From the NCBI GenBank assembly GCA_016213825.1, contig JACQZP010000021.1, positions 245,109 through 269,108 on the forward strand: DNA of 24,000 nt, read 5' to 3'. Below the pieces are notes generated by a model, which ran no database searches, was not told the origin of the DNA, and worked only from the letters and a program-made list of their open reading frames with translations. A program made the position numbers and the translations under genes. This DNA comes from Acetobacterium woodii. GTDB lineage: Bacteria; Bacillota; Clostridia; Eubacteriales; Eubacteriaceae. The stretch's first letter is position 1. Each line of letters opens with the position of its first letter. Shown here one piece after another: positions 3,159 to 23,764 of the stretch.

Positions 3159-4331
3159 TTGCCGAAACTATTTCAACCCAAAGAGAAAAAAGAAAAGAAA
3201 GAGAAAAAAAAGAGCAGTAAAAGTATTGAAAAAAACGAGAAATTAAAGAAAGTCACCGAAAAACTTGCTGATAACCCGGAAGTCGTTAAAATGATTCAGG
3301 AAGAAAATGAAGAGTCCAATAATAAAAAATCTAAAAAAAATGGTAAAAAGCTACCCCTAAAAATCATCATTCCAGCCGTTCTCGTCATTTTCCTCATCGG
3401 TGGTGGCGCATTTTTTGTTCTTAAAAGCGGCATGTTTTTTGGTAGTCACGCATCTGCAGAAGAAGATAATTCAGTGGACAAAGCGGCTATTTATATTCAA
3501 GCTGATACCTTTTATACGGAAGGGCATTACTATGATGCCAGTGCGCTATTTTCTTTTTTAGGAGAATATGAAGACAGCGTTGAAATGCTGACAAAAATCG
3601 ACTTAAACAGCCGGTATCCGGATAATGGAACAAAAATTACTAAATATGTTGGCAGTGATGTGATTAACAACTACATTCTCAGTTATAAAAACCATACTGA
3701 GATTACCACCGAACTTGAAAATGCCACAAAAACTACCGAAGCGCCAGCATCGGAAACGAAATCGGAGTCGAAGGAGCCATCGTCAACCACCGCAGAATCA
3801 ACTCAGCCGACAAAAAAAGCGGCACCGAATACCTCTAAAGAACTGGTCGCCTCTAATACTTCAGGAGAATCTACTTCTAGCACTGAAGAAAAAAGCACGA
3901 CCACTGAAGAGCCAGAAAAAACCCAGGAAAAAGCTGATGAAAAAGTCGAATATGATAAAGCAGTGATCGAAGCCGTTAAAGAAAAGACTCATGAAATTGT
4001 TCTCGCTGGCAATCTGGTTAAAAGCCTGAATATCCCCAGTGACAATCCCCTTTACGAAGCCCACGAAACCTTAAAACGGTCGGCTGATTATAGTAATCAA
4101 GCCGCTGAAAAAATTCTTGAAGGTGTCGAAGCGGGAACTTATAAACCAGGTGGTACCGGTGAAGTAGCTGAAGAAGTGAATACCTTGCTTGAAAATATGA
4201 ACAAGGAAACGGAACTGTTTCATAACCAGGTTAGCGATGTCATCGCCCTCAATCTCTTCGAGCTCGTTAAATGCCCTGATGCAGGCGAACTACTCAAGCG
4301 GTATTCGGAATCCTTTATTGTTTATGAATAA
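3159..4331 (+). CDS. Hypothetical single-pass membrane protein with Lys-rich N-terminus and Ser/Thr/Glu-rich linker
   Basis: 390-aa ORF with a TTG start preceded by AGGAGG (3142-3147). It has one clear hydrophobic helix (LPLKIIIPAVLVIFLIGGGAFFVL), then a low-complexity STE-rich region. I recognise no family. Confidence 0.55.
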   Translation: MPKLFQPKEKKEKKEKKKSSKSIEKNEKLKKVTEKLADNPEVVKMIQEENEESNNKKSKKNGKKLPLKIIIPAVLVIFLIGGGAFFVLKSGMFFGSHASAEEDNSVDKAAIYIQADTFYTEGHYYDASALFSFLGEYEDSVEMLTKIDLNSRYPDNGTKITKYVGSDVINNYILSYKNHTEITTELENATKTTEAPASETKSESKEPSSTTAESTQPTKKAAPNTSKELVASNTSGESTSSTEEKSTTTEEPEKTQEKADEKVEYDKAVIEAVKEKTHEIVLAGNLVKSLNIPSDNPLYEAHETLKRSADYSNQAAEKILEGVEAGTYKPGGTGEVAEEVNTLLENMNKETELFHNQVSDVIALNLFELVKCPDAGELLKRYSESFIVYE

Positions 4332-9677: not shown

Positions 9678-11063
9678 CTAAATCTGATCTAACAGCTTTT
9701 TTAAAATTCTTAGGCCTTGTTCCAACTCTTCCAGGGTTTCCGGCGCACCGATGGACATCCGCACGGCTCGGCTTGGTAAACTGTTCCCCACCGTAAACCG
9801 CTCGGCGGCATACAACCGAACGCCATTTTTTAGCGCCAGCGCCTCAAAATCGGACCCGGTGATGGACCCCGGCAATAACAACCAGCGGAAGATCCCGGTT
9901 TCATCGCCGCGGCATTGATAATCACATAAATAAGCATTAGCCAAAGCGTTGCGCCTGGTTGCATTATTCTGATGATTTTTGATAAAGTCATCAAGCTGTC
10001 CGGAAACGATCACCCGTGCTCCCAGAACCGCCATCAGCGGCGAAACTGAAATGTTTAAGTTGTATAGCGCTTTGGACACCGCTTTTCGGTAGGATTCCGG
10101 TACCGATACATAGGCCATCCGCAATCCCGGAGCCAGGGTTTTTGACATGCTGGCAATGTAGATGGTCTGCTCCGAGGCAAAGGACGCCACCGCCGGCCGG
10201 GTTTCTCGACTGAGAATATGGTAGGCCCCATCCTCGATGATAAAGATCCCGTATTCCTTAGCAATCTCGCCAATCATTTGGCGACGCTCTACCGACATGG
10301 TATGGGTGGTGGGATTGTGATTATCGGGGATTAGATAAATGCCCTTAATGTTTTCATTTTTACAGGCATCAATCAGCGCCTCCGCATCCATCTCTCCATC
10401 CAAATGCCGGATCGGGGTTAACTGAATTCCCAGCATCGAGGCCGTTGTTTTTAGACCGGAATAGGTATGGGGATCGGCACCAATTTTATCGCCATGTCGG
10501 CAAAGACCGGCAAGAATGGCAGTAATGGCGTTTTGACCGCCATTTGAGAATAGAATGCTGTCGGGATTTGGACTGAATCCACCCTTTTCCATCAGTTTCA
10601 CCGCGGCATCTTTCAGCCAGAGATTGGCGTTTGGTCGGCTGTAATTAAATAATTTCTCCGCATCTGATTCATTCAGCATTTCTTTTAAATGGTCAATCAA
10701 GGGTCCAAAAGAGGCAGTATCCGGAAAGACAGCGCCCATCTCAATCAGGTTTCTCGGTTTGTCATCGGGCAATAAATAAGCGTTAGCCAGCGCGTCAAAG
10801 GATACAAAGGTGCCACTGCCAACGGTCGCGCTAAGCAGGCCTTTTAATTCGCAGACCTTACAGGCTTTTGAGACGGTGCTGACATTGATATCCAGAAAAT
10901 CGGCCAGCTCCCGCTGCGGCGGCAGCTTTGTTCCCGGCAGCAGGTTCCCCTTTTTAATATCCTGCTCCAGTTGCCGGGCCAGGGCGAGATACAGGGGTTT
11001 GACCGCATCGTTCAAGGTCGGTTTCCAGGACATCGGATAATCTTCAAATGAATTGACGGGCAT
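9678..11063 (-). CDS. MocR/PdxR-type regulator (GntR HTH fused to a fold-I aminotransferase-like domain)
   Basis: N-terminal GntR wHTH (LPPQRELADFLDINVSTVSKACKVCELKGLL) plus a roughly 350-aa aminotransferase-like domain with SMSKTLAPGLRMAY (PLP lysine context). The track start at 11072 is a GTG inside the RBS. The in-frame ATG at 11063 sits 8 nt after AAGAGG, so I prefer that start. Confidence 0.85.
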   Translation of the reverse strand: MPVNSFEDYPMSWKPTLNDAVKPLYLALARQLEQDIKKGNLLPGTKLPPQRELADFLDINVSTVSKACKVCELKGLLSATVGSGTFVSFDALANAYLLPDDKPRNLIEMGAVFPDTASFGPLIDHLKEMLNESDAEKLFNYSRPNANLWLKDAAVKLMEKGGFSPNPDSILFSNGGQNAITAILAGLCRHGDKIGADPHTYSGLKTTASMLGIQLTPIRHLDGEMDAEALIDACKNENIKGIYLIPDNHNPTTHTMSVERRQMIGEIAKEYGIFIIEDGAYHILSRETRPAVASFASEQTIYIASMSKTLAPGLRMAYVSVPESYRKAVSKALYNLNISVSPLMAVLGARVIVSGQLDDFIKNHQNNATRRNALANAYLCDYQCRGDETGIFRWLLLPGSITGSDFEALALKNGVRLYAAERFTVGNSLPSRAVRMSIGAPETLEELEQGLRILKKLLDQI

Positions 11064-11085
11064 GCATGTCACCTCTTTTTATCTC

Positions 11086-11303: not shown

Positions 11304-11323
11304 TAGTTTATCAACAACCTCAA

Positions 11324-11350
11324 ACCTGCCGTCATCAAGTCGGCAAGTCT
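11324..11350. terminator. Weak hairpin after the HD-GYP regulator gene
   Basis: CCTGCCG (11324-11330) pairs with CGGCAAG (11340-11346), a 7-bp stem including one G-U when read on the minus strand. The better T-run (TCTTTTT) is on the plus strand, and the minus strand has only TTTGAGGTTGTT. Confidence 0.35.
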
Positions 11351-11361
11351 TTTTATTGTAG

Positions 11362-12477
11362 CTACACCTCGTTCAACGTCACTAATTCCTCTTCACAATC
11401 TGCAAATTTAATGGCAATTTGGCGGAATTCTTCATTTACTGCTTCGAAAGCATCAACCATCATTGGGTCAAAATGAACTCCGCGACCTTCTATTATGATT
11501 GCTACGGCGCTTCGATGGGTAAACGGCGGTTTGTAGACACGCTTACTGATCAGGGCATCGTAGACATCAGCAATGGCCATAATTCTTCCCGCAATGGGGA
11601 TCTCATCACCAGACAGACCATCTGGATAGCCAGTTCCATTCCACTTCTCCTGATGACATTTTGAAAACTCCATGGCATGTTTCAAAAAAGAATTTTCACC
11701 AAGCTTTAATGAGGCAATCCGTAGGGCATCATAGCCAATCGTGGTATGTTTTTTCATTTCCTCAAATTCTTCACAAGTCAATTTGCCAGGTTTTAGCAGA
11801 ATTTCATCGCGAATGCCGATTTTTCCAATATCGTGAAGTGGTGCTGACTTATAAAATATTTTTATGATTTCTTCGTTTAGAATATTCTGATATTTTTCGG
11901 TGGTACTGAGTTTTTCAGCCAGAATTTTGACGTAATTCTTGGTGCGGTCAATGTGTCCACCAGTGTCTGGATCCCGATATTCGGCCAGAGACGCCAGTGC
12001 TTCAATGGTAATTTCCTGGGTCAGACATAATTCCCGGGTTCGTTCTTCCACTCGTTGCTCGAGTTTTTCATTTTGGCTGGCCAATTCTTTTTTGGCAATC
12101 GTAATAAAGAGGTGCGTTTGGACCCGAGCCTTGACTTCCAGAATTTCAAATGGTTTGGTAATATAATCGACCGCTCCGGTTTCAAATCCTTTTGTTTTAC
12201 TGCCAATATCCGTCATGGCCGTCAAAAAAATAATCGGAATGTCGGCTGTTCGGGGGTCTTTTTTCAGTTTTTCACATACCTCATAACCACTCATTCCCGG
12301 CATCATGATGTCCAGCAAAATTAAATCCGGCAGTTCCATAGCGATAATTTCCAGGGCCGCTTCACCATCCATTGCCACGGTCAGATCATAGTCATCTCCC
12401 AGTGCTTCCACTAAAAGATCAATATTCATTTCGGTATCATCGACGATTAAAATGCTGCATTCTGATAATTTCTTCAT
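11362..12477 (-). CDS. Two-component response regulator, REC + HD-GYP domain (predicted c-di-GMP phosphodiesterase)
   Basis: REC motifs are present (ILIVDD, LILLDIMMPG, ITKPF), as are the HD-GYP motifs LHDIGKIG and WNGTGYPDGL followed by IADVYDAL. The track start at 12483 is a TTG. The ATG at 12477 lies 6 nt after GTGAGGT and 2 nt after the kinase stop codon, so I prefer it. Confidence 0.9.
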   Translation of the reverse strand: MKKLSECSILIVDDTEMNIDLLVEALGDDYDLTVAMDGEAALEIIAMELPDLILLDIMMPGMSGYEVCEKLKKDPRTADIPIIFLTAMTDIGSKTKGFETGAVDYITKPFEILEVKARVQTHLFITIAKKELASQNEKLEQRVEERTRELCLTQEITIEALASLAEYRDPDTGGHIDRTKNYVKILAEKLSTTEKYQNILNEEIIKIFYKSAPLHDIGKIGIRDEILLKPGKLTCEEFEEMKKHTTIGYDALRIASLKLGENSFLKHAMEFSKCHQEKWNGTGYPDGLSGDEIPIAGRIMAIADVYDALISKRVYKPPFTHRSAVAIIIEGRGVHFDPMMVDAFEAVNEEFRQIAIKFADCEEELVTLNEV

Positions 12478-12479
12478 AA

Positions 12480-15400
12480 TCAAACCTCACTTAATTTGAT
12501 TAATAAGGAATCCGCTTGTTCTTCAGCTTCCTTAAACTTATATTTGGAAACAAGTCGCATCAGTTCTGTCGCTTCAGCTTTGATTTCATTCGGCCACAAA
12601 AGCTGATGATATAATTCGAGTACCGCCGTACATTTTTTGGGCTTTCGCGTTTGAATACCTGGCAGCAGTTCTTCTAAAAAATGGACCAGTTCATCTTTCG
12701 GAGCAATCGAATTGTTTAACTCAACGCTATTGTTTTCCTCTGGCAAATACGCTTCGAGTGATTTTATCATCGATTTTAATAGAATACTCAGATTTATGAC
12801 AAGCGGTTTTAACGAATCCCTGCTTGGTTGTTCGTGTATTGCCGTTTCGAGGATCGTTGCCGCGTGTTTTATATCCATTGCCCCAATATTTCCTGATACT
12901 CCCTTTAATGTATGAACAAGTCGTTCAGCACCATTATAGTCGTCATTATTAATTGCCTGATTCAGGTCCGCAACCGTGTTCTTTTGCCCTGAAACAAATT
13001 TTCTCAGCAGATTCAGATAGGATTTTTTCTTGCCCAGAACCCGTTTCAGTCCCAGTTCTACATCCAAACCGCTGATTCTGATATCTAAATAGTCGTCTGG
13101 AAAAAGTTCACAGTTCATCTCACTGCGATCAACTGAATCCGCGACATTATTCAATGGTGGTATCCACCGGGTTAACATCTCAAAAAGATCACTCGGCTCG
13201 ATGGGCTTAGGCAAATGATCATTCATCCCGGCGGCAATACAGCGATCCCGATCTCCGGCCATGGCATTCGCTGTCATGGCGACAATGCGAAGCTCGGTAA
13301 ACCGACGGTCTGAGCGAATTTGTTTGGTCGCTTCAAGCCCGTCTAAAACAGGCATCTGCATATCCATCAAGACCAAATCATAAGCATTTTGATTAACCAT
13401 TTCTACTGCCAGCTGTCCATTGTTGGCTACATCAATCATAAAACCACCTTCTTTAAGGAGTTCAATGACAACAATTTGATTCAGCTCATTATCCTCCACC
13501 AGCAAAATTTTAGCCCCGGCAATTGCCTGCAGGTTCTTTCTCTGAATACTAACTAATCGTTGTTCACTTTCTTCAGATTCATTAATCGCATTTTTGCCAA
13601 CAATTCTCTGGGTGGTTTCATACAATACCCAAAGATTAACCGGTTTGACCATTACCAGTTCAAATCCCACTCGTTTGGCTTCAAAGAAAACTTCTTCTCT
13701 TCCAAATCCGGTTACCATCACATATTTGGGTGGATGCTTCAATTCGCTTTGATTTAACCGGGCGACGGTTTGAATCCCATTTAAATCAGGCATTTGCATG
13801 TCTATAAAAGCAATCTCATAGGGTTCATTTCGCTGATCGGCTGTTTGAATCATCTCGATGGCACTTGCACCAGAACCGGCTTCATCCACTCGCACAGCCA
13901 TGGATTTTAACATCGCCGACAGGATTAAACGGGCCTGAATATTGTCATCGACAACGAGAACATGGACGCCTTTTAACAGCTCATGTGAAATAACCGATTT
14001 TGCTGTTTTGGGCGAAATCCGAAAATGGGTCGTAAACCAAAAGATACTGCCTTTTCCATACTCGGATACCACTCCGACTTCGCCACCCATTAAGCTGGCC
14101 AGGTCTTTGGAAATAGCCAACCCCAACCCGGTACCACCATATTTTCGAGTAGTCGATGTATCGGCCTGCTGGAAGGACTGAAATAATTTTGATTTCTGAT
14201 CGGCAGTTAAGCCGATTCCGGTATCCTGAACTTCAAATCGCAGCGCGAACCCAGTGGTCGATTCCTTTTCTTTCCTGATTCGAACAATAATCTCACCCTT
14301 TTCGGTAAATTTAATTGCATTGTTAACATAATTAATCAGTATTTGTCCAATTCGTAGCGGATCGCCGCATAATTCGTTGGGAACATCCGGATGAATGTCA
14401 AAGACAAGCTCCAACCCTTTTGACAGGCATTTTTCGCTGATACAATTGGATAAATTATCGAGAACTTCATACAATTTAAAATCAATACATTCAATATCCA
14501 GTTTTCCGGCTTCAATTTTCGAAAAATCCAAAATATCATTAATAACACCCAGTAAATGTTGACCAGATTGCTGAATTTTATCAACATAGTCTTTCTGCTT
14601 TTCTGACAGATCCGTTTTTTGGATTAGATAACTCATGCCGAGGATCGCATTCATGGGGGTCCGTATCTCATGACTCATATTGGCTAAAAAATCAGATTTA
14701 GATTTAGCAGCTACTTCAGCAACTTTTTTTGCTTCAAAAAGTTCCTCTTCCATGTGCTTTCGTTGGGTGATATCCGTAGAAATACTACAAAGTCCGATAA
14801 TTTCACCATTTTGTTTCATGGGTACTTTGGTGGACAAATAGGTTTTATCAATCTTGCTTTTGATGGAATGCTCTTCGGTTATCTGAATTTCTTTTTGTCG
14901 AATCACATTGAGATCATTTTGATCATATGCTTCACCCTGACTCGAATTAAATACCGTCCTAGCGGTTTTACCAATGCAAGCCTCCCGTTTAAAACCAGTT
15001 ACATCTTCCCACTGCTTGTTAATATAAGTATATCTACCTTTTAAATCTTTTACATAGACGGCCGCCTGCAAGTTTTCGAGAACAGACTCCATAAACTCCC
15101 GGCTGTTGATCAATTCCCGATTCTTTTGTTCAATTTCCTGCATTAATTCTTCCTTGGATGGCGACTCAATTTCAGCACGTAATTCGTTAATCAGTGCGTC
15201 GCAAAATTCCGGATCAACAGACATAAATGGTAAAAAAACATTGGCCACAAATTTACCGTCTGATTTTTTAAGGATTGTCACATCATTAAAGTATCGTTCT
15301 GCAAATTCCATTTTTACCGGCGCATCAAGATTATCAAAAGCTATCGAAAGACACTTTTTATCATGGATTTCCGTAACTGCGATAATAATATTAACTTGAT

Positions 15401-15563
15401 TGTTGTCATCAAGTAACTGTCGGATGGTTTCAGACAAGGCTGCTTCAATTCGTGTTGCCCGGACTTCAGTACAGCCCAATTTGAGCGCAATCTGGCGGGC
15501 TTTTTTGCGTGCCTCGATTAATGAACTATTGCCATCAACTTTAATATGACCCAATTCGATCAT
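12480..15563 (-). CDS. Hybrid sensor histidine kinase: N-terminal RsbT/RsbW-like degenerate domain, PAS, HisKA, HATPase, REC, REC, HPt
   Basis: 1027-aa ORF. H-box MSHEIRTPMNAILG. N/G boxes NNAIKFT, DTGIGL, GGTGLGLAIS. Two receivers (VLVVDDN...FIDMQMPDLNG...VKPV and ILLVEDN...LMDMQMPVLDG...PKPI). C-terminal HPt HTLKGVSGNIGA. No predicted TM helix, so it is probably cytoplasmic. Confidence 0.9.
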   Translation of the reverse strand: MIELGHIKVDGNSSLIEARKKARQIALKLGCTEVRATRIEAALSETIRQLLDDNNQVNIIIAVTEIHDKKCLSIAFDNLDAPVKMEFAERYFNDVTILKKSDGKFVANVFLPFMSVDPEFCDALINELRAEIESPSKEELMQEIEQKNRELINSREFMESVLENLQAAVYVKDLKGRYTYINKQWEDVTGFKREACIGKTARTVFNSSQGEAYDQNDLNVIRQKEIQITEEHSIKSKIDKTYLSTKVPMKQNGEIIGLCSISTDITQRKHMEEELFEAKKVAEVAAKSKSDFLANMSHEIRTPMNAILGMSYLIQKTDLSEKQKDYVDKIQQSGQHLLGVINDILDFSKIEAGKLDIECIDFKLYEVLDNLSNCISEKCLSKGLELVFDIHPDVPNELCGDPLRIGQILINYVNNAIKFTEKGEIIVRIRKEKESTTGFALRFEVQDTGIGLTADQKSKLFQSFQQADTSTTRKYGGTGLGLAISKDLASLMGGEVGVVSEYGKGSIFWFTTHFRISPKTAKSVISHELLKGVHVLVVDDNIQARLILSAMLKSMAVRVDEAGSGASAIEMIQTADQRNEPYEIAFIDMQMPDLNGIQTVARLNQSELKHPPKYVMVTGFGREEVFFEAKRVGFELVMVKPVNLWVLYETTQRIVGKNAINESEESEQRLVSIQRKNLQAIAGAKILLVEDNELNQIVVIELLKEGGFMIDVANNGQLAVEMVNQNAYDLVLMDMQMPVLDGLEATKQIRSDRRFTELRIVAMTANAMAGDRDRCIAAGMNDHLPKPIEPSDLFEMLTRWIPPLNNVADSVDRSEMNCELFPDDYLDIRISGLDVELGLKRVLGKKKSYLNLLRKFVSGQKNTVADLNQAINNDDYNGAERLVHTLKGVSGNIGAMDIKHAATILETAIHEQPSRDSLKPLVINLSILLKSMIKSLEAYLPEENNSVELNNSIAPKDELVHFLEELLPGIQTRKPKKCTAVLELYHQLLWPNEIKAEATELMRLVSKYKFKEAEEQADSLLIKLSEV

Positions 15564-15584
15564 TACTTTACCTCGATTCCGACT

Positions 15585-16172
15585 TTATTTTAGATACTTC
15601 AATGCGATACAGGACGCATCATCGGTTTTTTTTCCTAATTCATAAAGAACCCCTTTGGCAATTGATTCAGCATCTCCAGCAAATAACTGCAAATAGTCAA
15701 AGGTATTAAAATGCTCAGTAATTCCATCAGAATGAAGCAGCAGCAAATCACGCTGTGTTAACTGACATTCACTAATCACTGGATTGATGTTTCCAAATCC
15801 CAGGATACCATCCTTTGAGATCATTCTGTTTTGATTGATGCCAATAATTCTGCCCGTGATATTTCCAATGCCAGTATACAGCAGTTTTCCAGATGGGATA
15901 TCCAGACGGCACATCAGGACAACGCCACCTCTGCTGCCACGCAGGTGTTGATGAAGACCTTTGATTACATCGACCAGATGGTTTTGATAATGCGCTGCGA
16001 GATATTCTTCAGCTTTAATCGCCAGGCTTCTTGCTTTCCGGCCATGCCCGAGGATATCGATCAGACAGATAAAACAATTTTGATCATATTCTTTAACATA
16101 ACCCAGATCGCCACATTCTGATAAATCGCCCAACAAAGCACTCATTTTAATGGCATAGTCAATGTTCTTCAT
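15585..16172 (-). CDS. PP2C/SpoIIE-type serine phosphatase, RsbX-like
   Basis: 195 aa, phosphatase domain only. Motifs CLIDILGHG, LHSDGITE and DDASCIAL. It overlaps the upstream kinase gene by 14 nt and holds the position of rsbX in RsbR-S-T-X modules. Confidence 0.8.
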   Translation of the reverse strand: MKNIDYAIKMSALLGDLSECGDLGYVKEYDQNCFICLIDILGHGRKARSLAIKAEEYLAAHYQNHLVDVIKGLHQHLRGSRGGVVLMCRLDIPSGKLLYTGIGNITGRIIGINQNRMISKDGILGFGNINPVISECQLTQRDLLLLHSDGITEHFNTFDYLQLFAGDAESIAKGVLYELGKKTDDASCIALKYLK

Positions 16173-16632
16173 TGTCCACCCATTTGCGTGTCAAAACACG
16201 GGTACCTTTTTCACAAACGGATTCGATATAAAACTCATCCATAATCCGCTGGACACTGGGTAGACCCTGACCTAGACTATTCAACTGAGAACTATAATTT
16301 TCCTTAAGTGCCTGTTCAACGTCATTAATCCCCGGTCCATGATCAATTGCGAGCAACTCAATGCCACAAGACGGATGCACTTCATCCATAATAATGCTTA
16401 TTTCGATCTGACCTTCACCCGCGTACCGCAGAATGTTTGTTGATAGTTCTGACGCTGCCACGGCTATTAACACCTCATCGGTTAAATTGAATCCCGCTTT
16501 TTTAGCGATACTCCGAACCGAATAGACAACATTTTCATTGTCATGACTCAAAACGAGGTCTATTTTTTTTGATTCCAGAATCTTATTATTTTTATTGATT
16601 TCAAAGCTCAATTGATTGCGACAAATTTTCAT
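16159..16632 (-). CDS. Anti-sigma-factor-type serine kinase (GHKL), RsbT-like
   Basis: 157 aa with N-box SELSTNILRYA, G1 DHGPGI and G2 LGQGLPSV. It directly follows two STAS genes. Confidence 0.85.
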   Translation of the reverse strand: MKICRNQLSFEINKNNKILESKKIDLVLSHDNENVVYSVRSIAKKAGFNLTDEVLIAVAASELSTNILRYAGEGQIEISIIMDEVHPSCGIELLAIDHGPGINDVEQALKENYSSQLNSLGQGLPSVQRIMDEFYIESVCEKGTRVLTRKWVDNEEH

Positions 16633-16648
16633 TGTTCCTTACCAGCGT

Positions 16649-17017
16649 TTACCGTTTGCTTTTGTGGAGCAAGGCCAAACCATTCTCTAAATTTATTGCT
16701 ATTTTTATTTTGGGATTAATGACAACATCTAAATCAATGAGTCCAAACACGACGCCCGGCCGTAATCCGACCCAAATTGTCTGAATTCCCATCAGTGCAA
16801 AAACATTTGTGATCCGTTCAAAAGCCTGATAGGTATAGGTATCGATCACAGTAACCATGGAAAAATTGAGGATTATGCCGTTGATGTTGGTCTGATAGGC
16901 TTTCTCAGTAATCATTTTTTCGATATTCACAATACTTTCATTGGTCATTTCAGCCGGAAGTGCCACGATAAAGCTGTTCTCGATAACGGTTATGGCAGTA
17001 CGATAATCTGCTTCCAT
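16649..17017 (-). CDS. STAS-domain protein, RsbS-like
   Basis: 122 aa, a single STAS domain. The conserved D-[ST] phospho-acceptor position reads VIDT. The size and position match RsbS. Confidence 0.85.
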   Translation of the reverse strand: MEADYRTAITVIENSFIVALPAEMTNESIVNIEKMITEKAYQTNINGIILNFSMVTVIDTYTYQAFERITNVFALMGIQTIWVGLRPGVVFGLIDLDVVINPKIKIAINLENGLALLHKSKR

Positions 17018-17051
17018 ATTTAAACCTATTCCTATCTTACGAATGATAACT

Positions 17052-17852
17052 TCACGATTTTTTCACCTTTACTTCCAGATTTAACATTTGAAACGCTTCA
17101 GTTAATGCGTCGCTGAGTGTCGCCCGAGTATTGATTGCTTCCATATCGATGCCTAACTGGATGATCGTTTGCGCCACCGCTGGCGAAATTCCTGAAAGGA
17201 TGCAATCACAACCCATCAATTTAGTCGCTTTTGTTATTTTAATCAAGTGGTTGGCAACCGCCGTATCCACGGCCGCTACACCATGTATATCCAGAATGAT
17301 AACTTTCGCATAGGTTTCGGCAATTTTGGTCAGCATGCTTTCCATCATGTGTTGCGCTCTCATTGAATCAACCACCCCTACAATTGGCAAAACCATGACC
17401 CCTTCCCACAGTTTAATCGTTGGCGTTGACATTTCTCTGATTGTATGACTTTGTTCTTTTAACCGGTTTTCATATAAAACACGTTCGGTAATGTCCAGAA
17501 CAAATTCAAGACCTCCGATTATTTCTCCGGCTTCATCAAGCAGAGGAACCGCAGAAAATTCCAAGGGCAGTGTTTGTTCACCGATACTTGCCACAGTTCG
17601 GGATGAATGGGTTTTTCCGGCTCTCATCGCTTTTAACATGGCGCAATCATCGGTTCCGCACTGATCAGTACAGATTAAATCTTTACAGGGGATGCCAAGA
17701 ATCTCATCTCCTGATTTTCTAAGCATCTTTTTCCCGGCCTCATTGATATAGGTCACGATCAAATCTTTATTGACGGCCATCACGGGTGCTGGAATTTGGT
17801 CAAGAATCTGAGCTTTTAATTTGTCATCTGCTTCCTGGAAATTTTTGTTCAT
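17052..17852 (-). CDS. RsbR-like stressosome sensor: N-terminal PAS (four Cys) + C-terminal STAS
   Basis: 266 aa. The PAS-like N-domain runs from QILDQIPAPVMAV to VLDITER. The C-terminal STAS domain has AVDT at the phospho-acceptor position and the GISPAVAQT motif typical of RsbR/RsbS. Strong AGGAGG RBS. Confidence 0.85.
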   Translation of the reverse strand: MNKNFQEADDKLKAQILDQIPAPVMAVNKDLIVTYINEAGKKMLRKSGDEILGIPCKDLICTDQCGTDDCAMLKAMRAGKTHSSRTVASIGEQTLPLEFSAVPLLDEAGEIIGGLEFVLDITERVLYENRLKEQSHTIREMSTPTIKLWEGVMVLPIVGVVDSMRAQHMMESMLTKIAETYAKVIILDIHGVAAVDTAVANHLIKITKATKLMGCDCILSGISPAVAQTIIQLGIDMEAINTRATLSDALTEAFQMLNLEVKVKKS

Positions 17853-17901: not shown

Positions 17902-19557
17902 TTATTGCTGTTGATCTTTTTCATTGATGATTGCTTTGATTTTTATGTAAGCTTTTTCAAGATCCCTGGTAAGGCTCGAAATTTCTTCGACCCTTTCCTG
18001 CGGAAATATTTCTTTGATTGTCCGACCTGGCTGAGTTAAAAGGATGTCCAATTCATCATGCATATCTTCCAAATTATCTTTAATTTCAAGCAACTGCTTT
18101 TTGACTTCTACTTGACTTTTTAGATCATCCAAAATAATTTGTTCTTCATCATCCAGATTGTATTCGGATACGTCTTCCACCACAATACAATCATAACCTA
18201 AAATATTTTTGACGGTATTAGCGAATGCCTTTTTGGGTTCATCTTCACCATGAACAAGGAAGATTTTTTTTGGCTGCTCTTTAAACCCAGAAAGCCATTC
18301 TAACAAGTAGTTCCGATCGGCATGGGCGGAAAAACCTTCTAAAAAATAGATTTCGGCATTGACAGCAATTCGCTCCCTCAAGATCCGCACATATTTTTCA
18401 CCACTAATGATTGCCCGTCCTGTGGTTCCTTCTGCCTGATAGCCCACAAACACGATACTGGATTTCGATTTCCATAAGTAGTGCTTGAGATGATGCTGTA
18501 CTCGACCGGCATCTGCCATCCCACTTGAAGCGATAATGACTTTCGGAGCAGTATTTTCGTTAAGCGCCTTGGATTGGTCAATACTCTTGGTAAAATTTAA
18601 ATTTCTGAAATAGAACAACTCATCGCCTCGTTTGATTCGTTCCTTGACCTTGTCATTGAAATAGTGGGCATTTCTCCTGAAAATTTCGGTAGCGTCGGTA
18701 GCCAGTGGGCTATCAATATAAACCTTAACCTTATCCAGTTGATTCTGGAAGTTTTCATGTTTTTCATAAAATAGTTCCAGCTCATGAATCAAATCCTGGG
18801 TTCGCCCCAATGCAAAGGATGGTACCACGACTGTTCCCCCGCGACTAATCGTTTTCAATACGATGTCAATAAAGTGTTTTCCGCTTTCCAAATGCGTTTC
18901 ATGGATACGATCACCATAGGTGGTTTCCATAATCAGATAATCTGCTTCGGATATGATCGTCGGATCATTGAGCATCCGTTGATTGGCCATTCCTATGTCA
19001 CCTGAGTAAACAAGTTTTGACTGCTTGTCGTCTTCTTTAATCCAAAGTTCAATAATCGCTGCTCCCAATATATGCCCGGCTTCATTCAGTCTTAAGGTTA
19101 TATCCGGGTTGATCTCAAATAAATTTCCATAAGCCACTGGAAAAAAGTATTTTAAGCAAGCGGCAGCATCTGCCTGGGTATAAAGGGGCTGAGCTTGAGG
19201 TTGTCCGGACCTTTTAGTACGCTTGTTTTTCCAGGAGACATCCATTTCATGAATATTACCGCTGTCCTGAAGCATGATATCGGATATTTCGGCAGTTGCC
19301 CCGGTGCAATAAATTTGTCCCTTAAACCCATGTTTTACCAGCAGGGGAATCCGACCGCAATGATCGATATGGGCATGACTGAGGATCATAAAGTCAATTT
19401 CCGCCGGGTCGAAATCAAATTCCTGATAGTTTAACTCTTCTAAAGCTTCACTGCCCTGAAACAAACCGCAATCAAGGAGGAACTTGTATCGGTCAGTGGT
19501 AATCAGATGACAAGATCCGGTAACGGACATCGCAGCTCCTAAAAATTTGATTTTCAT
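17902..19557 (-). CDS. Metallo-beta-lactamase fold, beta-CASP family nuclease (RNase J/CPSF-like)
   Basis: 551 aa with HAHIDHCG (HxHxDH), EAGHILGAA, YSGDIG, ETTYG, GFSAHAD and FLVHGE motifs in the canonical order. A further roughly 90 aa form an acidic, coiled-coil-like C-terminal tail. Confidence 0.85.
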   Translation of the reverse strand: MKIKFLGAAMSVTGSCHLITTDRYKFLLDCGLFQGSEALEELNYQEFDFDPAEIDFMILSHAHIDHCGRIPLLVKHGFKGQIYCTGATAEISDIMLQDSGNIHEMDVSWKNKRTKRSGQPQAQPLYTQADAAACLKYFFPVAYGNLFEINPDITLRLNEAGHILGAAIIELWIKEDDKQSKLVYSGDIGMANQRMLNDPTIISEADYLIMETTYGDRIHETHLESGKHFIDIVLKTISRGGTVVVPSFALGRTQDLIHELELFYEKHENFQNQLDKVKVYIDSPLATDATEIFRRNAHYFNDKVKERIKRGDELFYFRNLNFTKSIDQSKALNENTAPKVIIASSGMADAGRVQHHLKHYLWKSKSSIVFVGYQAEGTTGRAIISGEKYVRILRERIAVNAEIYFLEGFSAHADRNYLLEWLSGFKEQPKKIFLVHGEDEPKKAFANTVKNILGYDCIVVEDVSEYNLDDEEQIILDDLKSQVEVKKQLLEIKDNLEDMHDELDILLTQPGRTIKEIFPQERVEEISSLTRDLEKAYIKIKAIINEKDQQQ

Positions 19558-19655
19558 ATTCTTTCTCCCATTCTTAATATTTTTGTGTTTTATTTCAAAC
19601 TTTTATCAAGTAACTATTTTGCAGCTTAAATATCCGCAGTACTCTTATTAAAAGA

Positions 19656-22130
19656 TCATTTTATATTTGGCGGCTCCTTTTCAAGTGCTTTGCGATAATC
19701 ATTGAGTTTTTGCTCAACACGATAAAACACGCTATTTTTCTCATAGCTGCCCTGTTTGTTTATTTTACCCGCAGGTAAACCAGTTAAAATCTCCAGACCT
19801 TCTTCAATATGACTGATTGCATAAATATGAAAACGGCCATTTTTGACTGCATCCAGAACTTCATCTTTTAACATCAGATTGTCGATATTGCTTGCTGGTA
19901 TCATAACACCTTGTTCGCCGGTTAATCCCTTAGCCCGACAGATGTCAAAAAATCCTTCAATTTTTTCATTAACGCCGCCGATCGGCTGAATTTCGCCGCG
20001 TTGATCCACGGACCCGGTTACTGCAATGCTTTGCTTTATACCAGTTCCTGCCAGACTTGAGATGATCGCATAAAGTTCGGCACTGGAAGCACTGTCCCCC
20101 TCCACGCCATCATAAAGCTGTTCGAAAGTAACCTGGGCTGTAAAGCCCAATGGCTTTTCTTGAGCAAATTTTCCACCAAGATATCCGGCCAGTGTCAGCA
20201 CGCCCTTCGAGTGGATATTGCCACTCATTTCCGTTTCTCGTTCAATATTTATGACGCCGCCATGGCCCACATGCGTAACCGCCGTTATGCGAGCGGGCAA
20301 CCCAAACGAATAACCACCTGTTTGCATAATGAAAAGACCATTTATTTGCCCGACAGCAGTCCCTTCGGTGTCAATAATTATTTTTTTCTCAAAGATTCCC
20401 TCCTGGATCTTTTCTTCCAATTTATTAAACCGATATTTGCGCTCACTAATCGCTTTTTTGACGTGCGTCAATTCGACATATTTTAAGCCTTCAGCTTTTG
20501 CCCAGGTGATTGCCTCAAAAACAACTTCTTTCACATCACCAAAACGGGTCGACAACTTATGTTGATTTTCTGCCAGTCGTGAGCCATATTCAATAATACC
20601 GGCTAATCCGGTTTTGCTGAATGATATGGCACCTTTTTCGTTACAGATTGAGTTCACAAACGATGCATATTTATGAATATTTTCCGGGGTTCTTGGCATT
20701 TCATAGTCAAAATCCACCTTCACTTTAAAGAGCTCCCGAAAATCTTCGTCACTTGAAAGGATCATATAATAAAGCGGACTGCCGATGAGAATAACTTTTA
20801 CATTCAGTGGAATGTATTCTGGTTTTAACGTAACTGTTGGTACTGTCCGATATTGCTCGCCTATATTTTCCACAATTGCCTGCCTGTTTTTGAGCATTTT
20901 CTTTAATGTGTTCCAGACAAAAGGATCAGACAGAAGGTCTTTTGCTTGAAGAATCAGGTAACCGCCATTAGCCAGATGCAAAGATCCTGGCTTGACCATG
21001 GTAAAATCAGTATTCATTACCAGAATTTGACTTTTGTATTCAACCTTACCAAAAACATTATAATAGTACGGATTTGACTCAATTATTACTGGTGCACCCA
21101 GCTGTTTTTCATTATTAATAAACAAATTGACGCGATACTGGATAAATAGATTATTTTCTTCTGGTTCGCTAAAATATTTCATACTTGTTCCAGCCGTAAC
21201 ATCTTTATTGCCGCTATTATTTTCATTTTCCTTCTGGAAAGATGGCTGCGACTCCGAAAAAGCTTCTGCCTGAATAAAAAGCCCATTTTTTTCCGCGACA
21301 TCGTCTAAAACATATCCCAGATATTCGATAATCTTGGGAATTTCCGCATATTTTGCTTTTAAGCCATCAATTAACGGTACCGCAATCGCATAGGTAGTTT
21401 CTCTGGCCAATTCTAAAATCTGAGCAGTCATCTTTCTTTCGGCAAATTGTCCGTCAGTCAGGATATGATCTATTTTTTTGATTAGTCCCGATCGCTTTTC
21501 GTTGATGTGATTGCGCTGATCATCTGTAAGGTTACTAAATTCTTCGGGCTGATAGGGTTTACCATCTTTAAGCGGAATGAAGACAAATTTAATGCCCACA
21601 GGTTTTACCCCAAATCCGTCTTCAAAAGCTTTTTGCCTGATAATCTGGACTAGCTCTTCCATTTTTAATTGATAGGTGTTGAAAATTTGATCTCTTTTCA
21701 ATTCATAGTCCGTACTTTCAAAGGCGTTTCGAATGATATTTTTGAGTTCATCGACCAGTTTTTCCATATCCTTTTGAAATTCCCGGCCCTGACCTGCTCG
21801 AAATGCGACTGCTATTGGTTGATCTTTATTGCTAAAGTTATAAAGATAACACCAGTCACAAGGCACCTGTCTGTTAGCGGCTGCCTGGGTAACTACTTCT
21901 TTAGTATAATCATATTTGCCAGTTCCCGACGGTCCTACGACAAAAATATGATAGCCATCTTCGTCCATGGCAAGTCCAAACTCCATGGATTTAACTGCCC
22001 GCTCCTGACCTGCGATGGAGCTTAGCGGGATGATATTCTGAGATGTCATCGAGAAATTTAATTCATCTTCATCGTCACATACTTTTTTTAATTTTTCCAA
22101 TGGTATCTGATAATAATCATCTGGCATCAT
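19656..22130 (-). CDS. LonC-like protease (AAA-like domain + Lon S16 protease domain)
   Basis: 824 aa. N-terminal GQERAVKSMEFGL...FVVGPSGTGKY. The C-terminal Lon protease domain carries the Ser-Lys dyad context GDSASSA and IGGVNEKIEGF. AGGAGG RBS. Confidence 0.85.
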   Translation of the reverse strand: MMPDDYYQIPLEKLKKVCDDEDELNFSMTSQNIIPLSSIAGQERAVKSMEFGLAMDEDGYHIFVVGPSGTGKYDYTKEVVTQAAANRQVPCDWCYLYNFSNKDQPIAVAFRAGQGREFQKDMEKLVDELKNIIRNAFESTDYELKRDQIFNTYQLKMEELVQIIRQKAFEDGFGVKPVGIKFVFIPLKDGKPYQPEEFSNLTDDQRNHINEKRSGLIKKIDHILTDGQFAERKMTAQILELARETTYAIAVPLIDGLKAKYAEIPKIIEYLGYVLDDVAEKNGLFIQAEAFSESQPSFQKENENNSGNKDVTAGTSMKYFSEPEENNLFIQYRVNLFINNEKQLGAPVIIESNPYYYNVFGKVEYKSQILVMNTDFTMVKPGSLHLANGGYLILQAKDLLSDPFVWNTLKKMLKNRQAIVENIGEQYRTVPTVTLKPEYIPLNVKVILIGSPLYYMILSSDEDFRELFKVKVDFDYEMPRTPENIHKYASFVNSICNEKGAISFSKTGLAGIIEYGSRLAENQHKLSTRFGDVKEVVFEAITWAKAEGLKYVELTHVKKAISERKYRFNKLEEKIQEGIFEKKIIIDTEGTAVGQINGLFIMQTGGYSFGLPARITAVTHVGHGGVINIERETEMSGNIHSKGVLTLAGYLGGKFAQEKPLGFTAQVTFEQLYDGVEGDSASSAELYAIISSLAGTGIKQSIAVTGSVDQRGEIQPIGGVNEKIEGFFDICRAKGLTGEQGVMIPASNIDNLMLKDEVLDAVKNGRFHIYAISHIEEGLEILTGLPAGKINKQGSYEKNSVFYRVEQKLNDYRKALEKEPPNIK

Positions 22131-22248
22131 ATCATAGCCTCCTATTTTGTTTTAACTTTGTTTTTTTAATCATTCTGGTTGTTCTAACATTTAAATTTAA
22201 TTTCTTTACTTTATTAATATCCAACTTTATGAATTTTACGCAGATCTG

Positions 22249-22300
22249 CAAATAAAAATACACCAGAAGCTAAACATATCATTCAGCTATCTGGTGTATT
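22249..22300 (-). terminator. Intrinsic terminator (bidirectional) downstream of the DUF815 gene
   Basis: AATACACCAGAAGCT (22257-22271) pairs with AGCTATCTGGTGTATT (22285-22300), about 15 bp with one bulge. The minus strand is followed by TTTTATTT and the plus strand by CTTATTTTTATT. Confidence 0.6.
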
Positions 22301-22334
22301 CTTATTTTTATTGTTCAAGTTTTTTTAAATCAAG

Positions 22335-22385
22335 CGCTGTTACAATGCGATTTACGGTCCTCATCGATTTAACAGCGTTTTTTTT
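22335..22385 (+). terminator. Plus-strand-oriented terminator-like hairpin with no obvious plus-strand gene
   Basis: CGCTGTTA (22335-22342) pairs with TAACAGCG (22370-22377), with an inner AATGCGAT/ATCGATT pairing. Eight T residues follow (22378-22385). On the minus strand the hairpin is followed by A-rich sequence. Confidence 0.4.
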
Positions 22386-22401
22386 CATTTGATTTTTTAA
22401 T

Positions 22402-23715
22402 TTATTCTAAGCGAATTGAGAGCAGGTGATTGATGAATTGCTGCGCCGTCCGTCCCGAAATCCCACCATGTTGAAGCTCCCATTTATTGGCTTCCTGACA
22501 TAATTCTTCATCGGACAAGGACAGCCCTTCCCGTTTTGCCAACTCCGCCACAATTCCAAAATACTGTTTCTGACTGGGTCGCTCATAAAAAATGCTGACG
22601 CCGAAGCGATTGACCAGTGACAGTTTTTCCTGCATCGTATCCGAACGATGGATATCACTATTGGATTCCATGTCGTTGCGATCACTCCAGGTTTCCCGAA
22701 TAAGATGACGTCGGTTTGAGGTGGCGTAGATTAAGATGTTATCAGGTTTTGTTTCGACGCCACCTTCAATGACTGCTTTAAGAAATTTATATTCAATCTC
22801 AAATTCTTCAAATGAGAGATCATCCATATAGATAATAAACCGATAGTTGCGGTTTTTTATCTGCGCAATGACATTTGATAAATCCCGGAACTGATGTTTA
22901 TAGATTTCGATCATTCGCAAACCTTGATCATAAAATTCGTTGACAATGGCTTTGATACTGGTTGACTTCCCGGTACCGCTGTCACCAAACAACAGCACAT
23001 TATTAGCTTTTCGGCCTTCCACAAAGGCTTTGGTATTTTCAACCAGCCGTTGTTTCTGACTTTCATAGCCCACCAGATCACTGAGCATAACCTTATCCAT
23101 ATTATTGATGGGATTAAAGATCACCCCGTTGCCGTCAGCTTTGGGAATAATCCGGAATGCTTTATTGAGCCCAAACATACCCACGCCATATTCCCCATAA
23201 AATTCAGTGATTCGATCAAAAAATTCCTGATCATTTTCTGCGGCTTCCAACTTCAGACTGAGACTTTTTACTTTTTCGCTGACATTCTGATTATACATGA
23301 ATTCCGGTTTCTTGATGGCCTGATAGTTTGAAACCCGGCTGAAACAATCGATATCCAAGGCTTTTTCTAAGTCATTAAAATCAAAATCAAACAGATTTTT
23401 AAAGACGCTGCTGTCATTTTGAGCAAAGAAATTGACGCTACCTTCTTTTTTGCCCACCTTTTCGCAGGTTAAGCTAAACGGGTTTTCATTGGTGATCAGT
23501 AAAAAGGTCAGATAGTGGTGCCACAGATTTCGATCAAAGCCAAAATCAGTGGCAATTTCCAGCAGTGATTTGATCTGCCGATAACTCTCTGCTATTAATT
23601 CTTCTTTCGTATCTTCGCCTCTGTAGTAACGTTCATAGAGCTGGCCCATCTTTGTTAATAGATTTCTGGGATCTGTGTCGGTATAGAGGATTAGTTTTGC
23701 AATCATTCGATTCAT
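22402..23715 (-). CDS. DUF815-family P-loop ATPase (AAA-like), function unknown
   Basis: Walker A LLFGDSGTGKST and Walker B-like FIIYMDDLSF, with overall resemblance to the DUF815 ATP-binding protein family. The track start is 23760. The ATG at 23715 has AAGGAG 6 nt upstream, and the candidate promoter would place the TSS downstream of 23760, so I prefer 23715 (437 aa). Confidence 0.75.
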   Translation of the reverse strand: MNRMIAKLILYTDTDPRNLLTKMGQLYERYYRGEDTKEELIAESYRQIKSLLEIATDFGFDRNLWHHYLTFLLITNENPFSLTCEKVGKKEGSVNFFAQNDSSVFKNLFDFDFNDLEKALDIDCFSRVSNYQAIKKPEFMYNQNVSEKVKSLSLKLEAAENDQEFFDRITEFYGEYGVGMFGLNKAFRIIPKADGNGVIFNPINNMDKVMLSDLVGYESQKQRLVENTKAFVEGRKANNVLLFGDSGTGKSTSIKAIVNEFYDQGLRMIEIYKHQFRDLSNVIAQIKNRNYRFIIYMDDLSFEEFEIEYKFLKAVIEGGVETKPDNILIYATSNRRHLIRETWSDRNDMESNSDIHRSDTMQEKLSLVNRFGVSIFYERPSQKQYFGIVAELAKREGLSLSDEELCQEANKWELQHGGISGRTAQQFINHLLSIRLE

Positions 23716-23764
23716 AATGGTCTCCTTGGCAATTGTAATAATGTCTGGAATAGATGTCATTTTT

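Follow-up and report, generated by a model that had tools for sequence, protein, structure and literature searches.

A Vibrio-type stressosome operon on an Acetobacterium contig, with a pseudo-RsbT domain as the candidate coupling device of its hybrid kinase

A 24 000-nucleotide stretch of a contig filed under Acetobacterium woodii (assembly GCA_016213825.1, contig JACQZP010000021.1, positions 245,109–269,108; hereafter the window) carries on its minus strand six consecutive genes for a stressosome module, a hybrid histidine kinase and a response regulator with receiver (REC) and HD-GYP domains. The locus is probably a Vibrio-type stressosome operon, in which an RsbR(PAS)-RsbS-RsbT-RsbX module is joined to a hybrid-kinase phosphorelay and the REC-HD-GYP regulator, and in which RsbT would be coupled to the relay via a pseudo-RsbT (psT) domain of the kinase. 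The wiring of a stressosome to a phosphorelay and an HD-GYP protein is already known from the Vibrio-type locus, and the present operon is a PAS-headed Firmicute version of it. A preliminary description of this DNA, made from the sequence alone, had taken the wiring to be uncharacterised and had set it apart from a two-component case in Vibrio; the same architecture has been published for Vibrio, and that case is the same design. The psT domain, which the description had overlooked, is more informative than any other feature of the locus.

Composition of the operon

The six genes, in the order of transcription, are as follows (ORF, open reading frame; aa, amino acids).

17052-17852, minus strand: rsbR, ORF of 266 aa
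16649-17017, minus strand: rsbS, ORF of 122 aa
16159-16632, minus strand: rsbT, ORF of 157 aa
15585-16172, minus strand: rsbX, ORF of 195 aa
12480-15563, minus strand: hybrid histidine kinase, ORF of 1027 aa
11362-12477, minus strand: REC-HD-GYP regulator, 371 aa from the ATG at 12477 (ORF 11362-12483)

From rsbR to the regulator the ORF coordinates give spacings of 34, 16, −14, 21 and 2 nucleotides (nt), rsbT and rsbX overlapping by 14 nt, which confirms the tight packing of six minus-strand genes reported before. The same six genes were called independently on a metagenome contig of identical sequence. A strong ribosome-binding site, AGGAGG, precedes rsbR by 7 nt, and a sequence scan found no transmembrane-like segment in any of the six proteins. 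Pfam domains were assigned to all six proteins with every match above the gathering threshold, in agreement with the earlier assignment of STAS, RsbT-type GHKL, PP2C, kinase and HD-GYP domains. By Pfam and a survey of the window proteins, the 24-kb window has no gene for a sigma factor, RsbU, RsbV or RsbW, and over that length the earlier statement that RsbU, RsbV, RsbW and sigma-B genes are missing holds.

RsbR consists of a PAS domain (aa 14-125; PAS_4, expectation value E 3e-17) and a STAS domain (aa 149-249; E 2e-16), and is the predicted stressosome sensor and co-antagonist. Its STAS half resembles V. vulnificus RsbR most (7o0i_B, E 1.5e-47), ahead of the Listeria and Bacillus proteins. 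The phospho-acceptors of Bacillus subtilis RsbR are T171 and T205; at the acceptor columns the window protein reads VDS and AVDT where Listeria RsbR reads IDT and VVDT, both positions being Ser or Thr. RsbS has a single STAS domain (E 2e-8), matches the solved RsbS chains 6jhk, 6qcm, 7o0i_a and 2vy9, and is the putative single-STAS scaffold and antagonist. Its acceptor is a Thr (VIDT) aligned with the IDS of Listeria and Bacillus RsbS (6jhk, 6qcm). Alignment to solved subunits thus upholds the Thr acceptors proposed earlier for RsbR (AVDT) and RsbS (VIDT).

RsbT matches HATPase_c_2 (E 6e-9) and has intact N-box (SELSTN), G1 (DHGPGI) and G2 (GQGLP) motifs, with E62, N66, D97, G99, G101 and G121/G123 invariant in an alignment of 16 homologues. 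It is predicted to be a GHKL serine/threonine switch kinase, and its closest named relatives are Acetobacterium RsbT proteins (64-73% identity). RsbX matches SpoIIE/PP2C (E 6e-9, 36.7 bits against a cut-off of 25) over aa 30-192 of its 195 residues, as would be expected of a single-domain PP2C feedback phosphatase. Its gene directly follows rsbT, a position that is conserved in loci of the RSTX type.

The kinase is soluble, and its domains run psT, PAS, HisKA (H298), HATPase, REC (D588), REC (D734) and histidine phosphotransfer (HPt; H884).

15144-15563, minus strand: psT domain, kinase aa 1-140 (HMMER, hhalign, AlphaFold2, Foldseek)
14757-15098, minus strand: PAS domain, aa 156-269 (Pfam PAS_4, E 3e-18)
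14025-14702, minus strand: HisKA, aa 288-353, and HATPase_c, aa 400-513 (Pfam, E 6e-23 and 1e-26)
13173-13955, minus strand: two receivers, about aa 537-660 and 686-797, with Asp588 and Asp734 (Pfam Response_reg, E 3e-44)
12753-13010, minus strand: HPt domain, aa 852-937, with His884 in HTLKG (Pfam Hpt, E 7e-13)

The motifs of the kinase core are present (H-box SHEIRTPMN, G1 DTGIG, G2 GTGLGL), both receivers carry DMQMP, and with D58 of the regulator the full set of relay residues, H298, D588, D734 and H884, is in place. The preliminary description of a cytoplasmic HisKA-HATPase-REC-REC-HPt kinase stands as to these domains and the lack of transmembrane segments; it had missed both the PAS domain and psT. 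The PAS domain is a possible second signal input.

The regulator combines Response_reg (D58) with HD_5/HD, and its best NCBIfam match is the response-regulator c-di-GMP (cyclic di-GMP) phosphodiesterase family NosR. The best solved relative of its HD-GYP domain, aligned end to end, is Pseudomonas aeruginosa PA4781 (4r8z, E 5e-54), followed by PmGH (E 5e-40); comparison of this domain with the two Vibrio regulators described below gave E 9e-73 and 4e-43. The protein is therefore best described as a putative c-di-GMP phosphodiesterase. Its HD (217-218) and GYP (285-287) motifs are intact, while HHE at aa 277-279 reads HQE. The same HQE occurs in the orthologue of Vibrio sp. THAF191d (L082, 12373-13515), and another solved relative, 5z7c, is a phosphodiesterase specific for 3'3'-cGAMP; both observations would fit a protein that acts on a different cyclic dinucleotide, or that is a weakened enzyme or a sensor. 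We regard this as quite improbable, given that PA4781 and PmGH are the best relatives, that HD, GYP and the other conserved positions do not vary, and that HHE is retained by four of six orthologues in the alignment (five of seven sequences).

The pseudo-RsbT domain

No Pfam or NCBIfam model matches aa 1-140 of the kinase, and word-indexed homologue searches with this N-terminus, alone or as a 40-sequence profile, gave nothing useful. An exhaustive HMMER search found psT in 94 representative clusters, with host proteins of 79-1352 residues. The domain is at or near the N-terminus in 93 of these, the exception being P0137 (residues 103-250).

When aligned by hhalign, psT matched RsbT over the whole GHKL domain (96.2%, E 2.2e-9), with a gap of about 20 residues at the G1 box and ATP lid of RsbT. 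The psT hidden Markov model (HMM) matched 70 of 83 RsbT ORFs (median E 8e-11) and none of the ten RsbW ORFs in the same loci. An AlphaFold2 model of psT, built on 40 sequences, has an alpha/beta fold (predicted local distance difference test, 88.7; predicted template modelling score, 0.80). A Foldseek search with this model returned RsbW, SpoIIAB and UsfX as the top 17 matches, with SiaB also among the best (probability 1.0, template modelling score 0.5-0.78).

The N-box Asn, which binds Mg-ATP, is found in none of 40 psT members and DxGxG in one of the 40; the G1 and G2 boxes are likewise missing, and the ATP lid is deleted in the alignment. Because the ATP-binding Asn, DxGxG and the lid are lost, psT is predicted to be a pseudokinase with an RsbT-like GHKL fold, outside the catalytic GHKL family. 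It ends in a conserved linker motif, S-R/K-x-E-L...K-N, and has two near-invariant serines, Ser44 and Ser136, position 136 being Ser or Thr in 39 of 40 members.

Resemblance to RsbT could mean that psT mimics it, docking the kinase on the STAS surface of RsbR and RsbS as a stressosome client that competes with RsbT. Such docking would suit the specific likeness of psT to RsbT rather than RsbW, and the fact that the region common to psT and RsbT covers the N-terminal helices. It would also suit the structural relatives of psT, all of which were solved in complexes, mostly with STAS-type antagonists (RsbW, SpoIIAB, UsfX), the others with sigma F (1l0o and 8jzt) or with SiaC (6kko). However, the ATP-lid region contacts the STAS partner in SpoIIAB-SpoIIAA complexes, and this is the region deleted in psT; a dimeric 1027-aa kinase may also not fit the stressosome surface. 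On balance we consider STAS docking unlikely.

The possibility that the kinase N-terminus is a divergent RsbU_N was rejected, as it gave no RsbU_N match in Pfam at E 10 and its predicted fold is alpha/beta, not a helix bundle. Across 26 psT domains no match to RsbU_N (PF08673), the RsbT-binding four-helix bundle, was obtained at E up to 10; the same Pfam library detects RsbU_N in a protein of locus L042 with E 1.6e-15. No description of psT was found in the literature searched, and it appears to be undescribed so far; the Pane-Farre reviews of 2005 and 2017 lay outside that search, and an earlier description is possible.

The domains fused to psT, among 85 proteins scanned, were chiefly HisKA (58), REC (34) and Hpt (22), with a few cases of SpoIIE/PP2C, adenylate/guanylate cyclase, GGDEF and HD_5; the GGDEF and HD-GYP fusions are one protein each and come from family counts only. 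In cyanobacterial RSTX loci (L018, L030, L057, L062, L076) psT heads PP2C phosphatases, which would be analogues of RsbU with another adaptor. Class III adenylate/guanylate cyclases headed by psT occur in Desulfovibrionaceae, Hyphomicrobiales and a metagenome contig (L010, L046, L085), which points to cAMP or cGMP as additional outputs of stressosomes. RsbU_N was never found on psT proteins and sits instead on the HD-GYP protein of L042, so that RsbU_N and psT look like alternative adaptors.

The psT domain is tied to rsbX, in that every genomic context examined has psT directly after rsbX. Its HMM matches the gene directly following rsbX in about 25 of the loci surveyed below. All five psT proteins that were picked without use of RsbT adjoin rsbX directly, on its downstream side, and four of the five belong to a full PAS-STAS/STAS/RsbT/RsbX cluster. 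Within Vibrio, the V. aquimaris kinase gives a strong psT match (E 1.9e-26).

We tentatively propose, at somewhat less than even confidence, that psT is an undescribed phylum-spanning adaptor that links RSTX stressosomes to kinases, PP2C phosphatases, cyclases, GGDEF and HD-GYP proteins, in a role like that of RsbU_N. The proposal predicts that a heterotypic interaction, RsbT-psT or psT-STAS, is the coupling step, and we hold this prediction with equal reserve.

One protein, P0055 (552 aa), carries psT in tandem (aa 1-131 and 130-261) and is the sole psT-psT protein found. This is a hint that psT domains associate with one another, in the manner of the RsbW and SpoIIAB dimers.

The survey also showed a second class of stressosome locus, in which RsbT is followed by a protein that fuses a second RsbT-like domain to PP2C.

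L022, 6593-7648: RsbT-like-PP2C fusion
L038, 10330-11361: RsbT-like-PP2C fusion
L042, 8034-9062: RsbT-like-PP2C fusion
L051, 3230-4342: RsbT-like-PP2C fusion, the only RsbT-like ORF found at this locus
L065, 1941-2951: RsbT-like-PP2C fusion
L075, 1147-2148: RsbT-like-PP2C fusion
L049, 4076-4994: reverse order, PP2C then RsbT-like

At L042 (Bipolaricaulota) the next gene encodes an RsbU_N-...-HD-GYP protein, a direct link from stressosome to HD-GYP with no phosphorelay.

Conservation of the operon across phyla

Scanning one genome per species with an RsbT profile gave 80 loci, which were annotated with the window's own domains. About 40 of them, from Bacillaceae, have the classical RsbU-RsbV-RsbW-SigB-RsbX order. 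In the loci nearest to the window, RsbX directly follows RsbT and is itself followed by a hybrid kinase. A REC-HD-GYP gene comes next in Eubacteriaceae ES2, Limiplasma, Fibrobacter, two Desulfobacter and Oceanispirochaeta, and in Victivallales the REC-HD-GYP regulator lies divergently upstream. The six-gene order was also found in A. woodii, in two Vibrio replicons and in an unrelated metagenome contig reached independently. PAS versions of RsbR are common among the loci. The phyla covered are Bacillota, Fibrobacterota, Desulfobacterota, Spirochaetota, Lentisphaerota and Pseudomonadota; the cassette is not a Vibrio peculiarity and is conserved over at least six phyla with interchangeable RsbR sensor heads. 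The preliminary description had proposed a neighbourhood survey for co-conservation of the kinase and regulator with RsbRSTX, and this co-conservation was found across the six phyla.

Some loci vary in detail. Two ORFs take the place of the kinase gene in ES2 and of the regulator gene in Limiplasma, and in Oceanispirochaeta a stand-alone HPt gene is added between those of the kinase and the regulator (L014, 14203-14820). A second, very large hybrid kinase follows the regulator in the two Desulfobacter loci (L011, 15017-19780; L012, 10518-14447). A kinase of this kind also lies about 550 nt after the psT-kinase of an uncultured delta-proteobacterium (L015, 14505-19817), where no HD-GYP regulator was found.

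The kinase and regulator might still form an independent two-component system that merely adjoins the stressosome genes and responds to its own PAS input only. The kinase does have a PAS sensor of its own, and L002, L007 and L016 have a hybrid kinase with no HD-GYP regulator following it. Nevertheless, six phyla have kept the gene order although the flanks differ, psT was seen nowhere but after rsbX, the gaps before the kinase and the regulator are 21 and 2 nt, and in V. vulnificus co-transcripts cross the rsbX-D1 junction (PMC10436020). Because of this conservation pattern, mere adjacency is very improbable.

The flanking genes of the window are common to none of the 80 surveyed loci, and only A. 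woodii is syntenic. A. woodii DSM 1030 (CP002987; L088) has the same six genes, with DUF815 and beta-CASP genes upstream and AzlC, AzlD and TrmB genes downstream. It lacks two genes of the window, one for a LonC-like protease (19656-22130, within the minus-strand flank at 17902-23760) and one for a MocR-type GntR/aminotransferase regulator (9678-11072); these look like insertions in the window lineage. The beta-CASP, LonC and DUF815 genes on the upstream side and the MocR gene on the downstream side were considered as parts of the module and rejected, as they are not co-conserved in the surveyed loci.

Proposed mechanism

By homology to solved stressosomes, the STAS domains of RsbR and RsbS would assemble into a stressosome, a pseudo-icosahedral complex of roughly 1.8 MDa, that sequesters RsbT. 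On a signal at the RsbR PAS domain, RsbT would phosphorylate the acceptor Ser/Thr residues of RsbR and RsbS and dissociate, and RsbX would reset the complex, as in Bacillus, Listeria and Moorella. Free RsbT would then engage the psT head of the kinase, an ATP-blind RsbT paralogue that would stand in for the RsbU_N of Bacillus RsbU and Moorella MtG. The helical linker of psT (S-R-x-E-L...K-N) and the PAS domain would pass the change to the dimerization and catalytic (DHp/CA) core of the dimeric kinase. The relay residues predict a phosphoryl path H298 -> D588/D734 -> H884 -> regulator D58. The phosphorylated receiver would switch the HD-GYP domain and c-di-GMP would fall, by analogy with PA4781 and PmGH. 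The flow proposed in the preliminary description, from signal to RsbT release, kinase control and c-di-GMP degradation, fits the domains and the operon structure; its naming of a stress or redox input found no support.

RsbT might instead signal by transient Ser/Thr phosphorylation, with psT or S136 of its linker as the substrate or docking site. Heinz et al. could detect no interaction between VvRsbT and VvD1, the kinase of the V. vulnificus locus, and proposed exactly such transient phosphorylation (PMC9237108). The catalytic motifs kept by the window RsbT and the near-invariance of Ser44 and Ser136 in psT are in line with their proposal. However, S44 belongs to the structural SE motif of RsbT itself, and its conservation needs no role in phosphorylation. 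Kang et al. reportedly found in 1998 that the kinase activity of B. subtilis RsbT is dispensable for RsbU activation. Signalling by phosphorylation seems rather unlikely, though it has specific points in its favour.

For the proposed mechanism as a whole, the result of Heinz et al. is one of several points that count against it. Among the psT proteins no natural fusion of psT to a catalytically intact RsbT was found; the other 'RsbT' matches in that search were the kinases' own CA domains. The psT profile fits the N-terminus of the THAF191d kinase only moderately (hhalign 87%, E 4.5e-6). Signals could also reach the kinase through its PAS domain without the stressosome, and replacement of the second His of HHE by Gln may alter the metal stoichiometry or phosphodiesterase activity of the regulator. 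With these points included, we infer that psT is the best candidate for the coupling device that is reported as missing in V. vulnificus.

By itself, the stressosome-phosphorelay-HD-GYP design adds little, since work on Vibrio has already described it and the published A. woodii genome contains it; A. woodii is, though, a genetically tractable anaerobe that carries the cassette. The interest lies in psT, a concrete candidate for the way in which RsbT, or the stressosome as such, talks to outputs that have no RsbU_N. If the proposal is true, a kinase paralogue has been recycled as a docking module, and a single domain signature would be enough to predict the outputs of stressosomes genome-wide.

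Boundaries of the operon and other features of the window

The end of the beta-CASP gene lies 49 nt from rsbR with no recognisable terminator between them, and read-through transcription from the beta-CASP gene into rsbR is possible. On the other side, a weak hairpin was noted by eye just 3' of the regulator stop codon.

11318-11348, minus strand: weak hairpin, CTTGCCG...CGGCAGG, then TTTG

This hairpin is tentatively a possible operon end; it was not called by the terminator scan. Consensus scans of the window for promoters and terminators did no better than on shuffled sequence, so the operon boundaries are drawn from gene spacing and synteny. Scans of the window found neither an Rfam family nor a tRNA, and there is accordingly no c-di-GMP riboswitch in the window by the Rfam scan.

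The remaining genes of the window code for HtpG, a CGGC protein, aminotransferases, a decarboxylase, TrmB, AzlCD, the MocR-type regulator, the beta-CASP nuclease, the LonC-like protease and the DUF815 ATPase. Two further features are of note, the first of them at the left end of the window.

425-2320, minus strand: gene for the HtpG (Hsp90) chaperone, with no evident link to the module
3159-4331, plus strand: ORF of 390 aa with a TTG start, encoding a Lys/Glu/Ser/Thr-rich low-complexity protein with one hydrophobic segment

The latter ORF matches no Pfam family and has no tandem repeat at the DNA level; its region has a strong AT skew (0.26).

Comparison with known systems

Work by Pane-Farre from 2005 is said to be an earlier source on the stressosome locus of V. 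vulnificus; the later papers are Heinz 2022 (PMC9237108) and Cutugno 2023 (PMC10014275 and PMC10436020). In this species an upstream module of VvRsbR, S, T and X is followed by the downstream genes VvD1 and VvD2, a two-component system 'most likely involved in c-di-GMP hydrolysis' (PMC9237108, PMC10014275, PMC10436020). VvD1 carries a PAS domain (PMC9237108). The RSTX and D1/D2 genes share transcripts, and mutants without RSTX or without D1 show reduced motility and fleQ expression (PMC10014275, PMC10436020). The window locus agrees with that of V. vulnificus in having RsbR-S-T-X, a PAS hybrid kinase of about 1050 aa and then a regulator predicted to hydrolyse c-di-GMP, with no sigma-B partner-switch genes at the locus. 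It differs in its host, an anaerobic Acetobacterium-like Firmicute, and in RsbS, whose Thr acceptor is aligned with a Gly of V. vulnificus RsbS. The V. vulnificus studies found no RsbU_N domain in VvD1 and stated the resulting coupling gap openly. A psT adaptor, if confirmed, would answer this question, both as to a VvD1 without RsbU_N and as to the RsbT-VvD1 interaction that was not detected.

Two further Vibrio loci were read from chromosome-2 replicon records. Vibrio sp. THAF191d has, in order, a protoglobin-STAS protein, a STAS protein, RsbT, RsbX, a 1057-aa PAS-HisKA-HATPase-REC-REC-Hpt kinase and a REC-HD_5 regulator. The gene order is the same in V. aquimaris, where the 913-aa kinase has the core, two receivers and HPt; no PAS domain was detected in this kinase, and no domain was assigned to the RsbR N-terminus. 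The sensor of the window RsbR is thus a PAS domain, whereas that of THAF191d RsbR is a protoglobin, a haem globin-coupled sensor. The module type is the same, with the globin sensor exchanged for PAS.

The Moorella thermoacetica MtR-MtS-MtT-MtX-MtG system shares with the window an anaerobic acetogenic Firmicute host, an RSTX module with a single reset phosphatase of the RsbX type, and an output to c-di-GMP rather than sigma-B. Quin et al. reportedly showed in 2012 that MtG is inhibited by MtT. The two systems differ in both adaptor domain and enzymatic direction, since the Moorella output is a single RsbU_N-GAF-GGDEF cyclase, MtG (PMC12143880), whereas that of the window is a psT-headed phosphorelay ending in a predicted HD-GYP hydrolase. 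According to a 2025 study, RsbT acts via RsbU_N-type adaptors on phosphatases, kinases and cyclases (PMC12143880).

With B. subtilis and Listeria the window shares the homologous RsbR/RsbS STAS core, RsbT and RsbX, and the Ser/Thr acceptor positions are conserved. RsbU with its four-helix RsbU_N, the partner switch, the sigma factor and, in the surveyed loci, an rsbX at the operon end belong to the Bacillus and Listeria system, and none of these is present at the window locus. The regulator has the two-domain REC and HD-GYP layout of Xanthomonas RpfG and of PA4781; those proteins are fed by membrane sensor kinases (e.g. RpfC), whereas the window regulator would be fed by a soluble stressosome-linked kinase, and it has HQE for HHE. 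The psT domain itself has the same Bergerat-type alpha/beta fold as RsbW, SpoIIAB and RsbT and is homologous in sequence to RsbT, but unlike them it lacks the ATP motifs, is fused N-terminally to an output enzyme and is never free.

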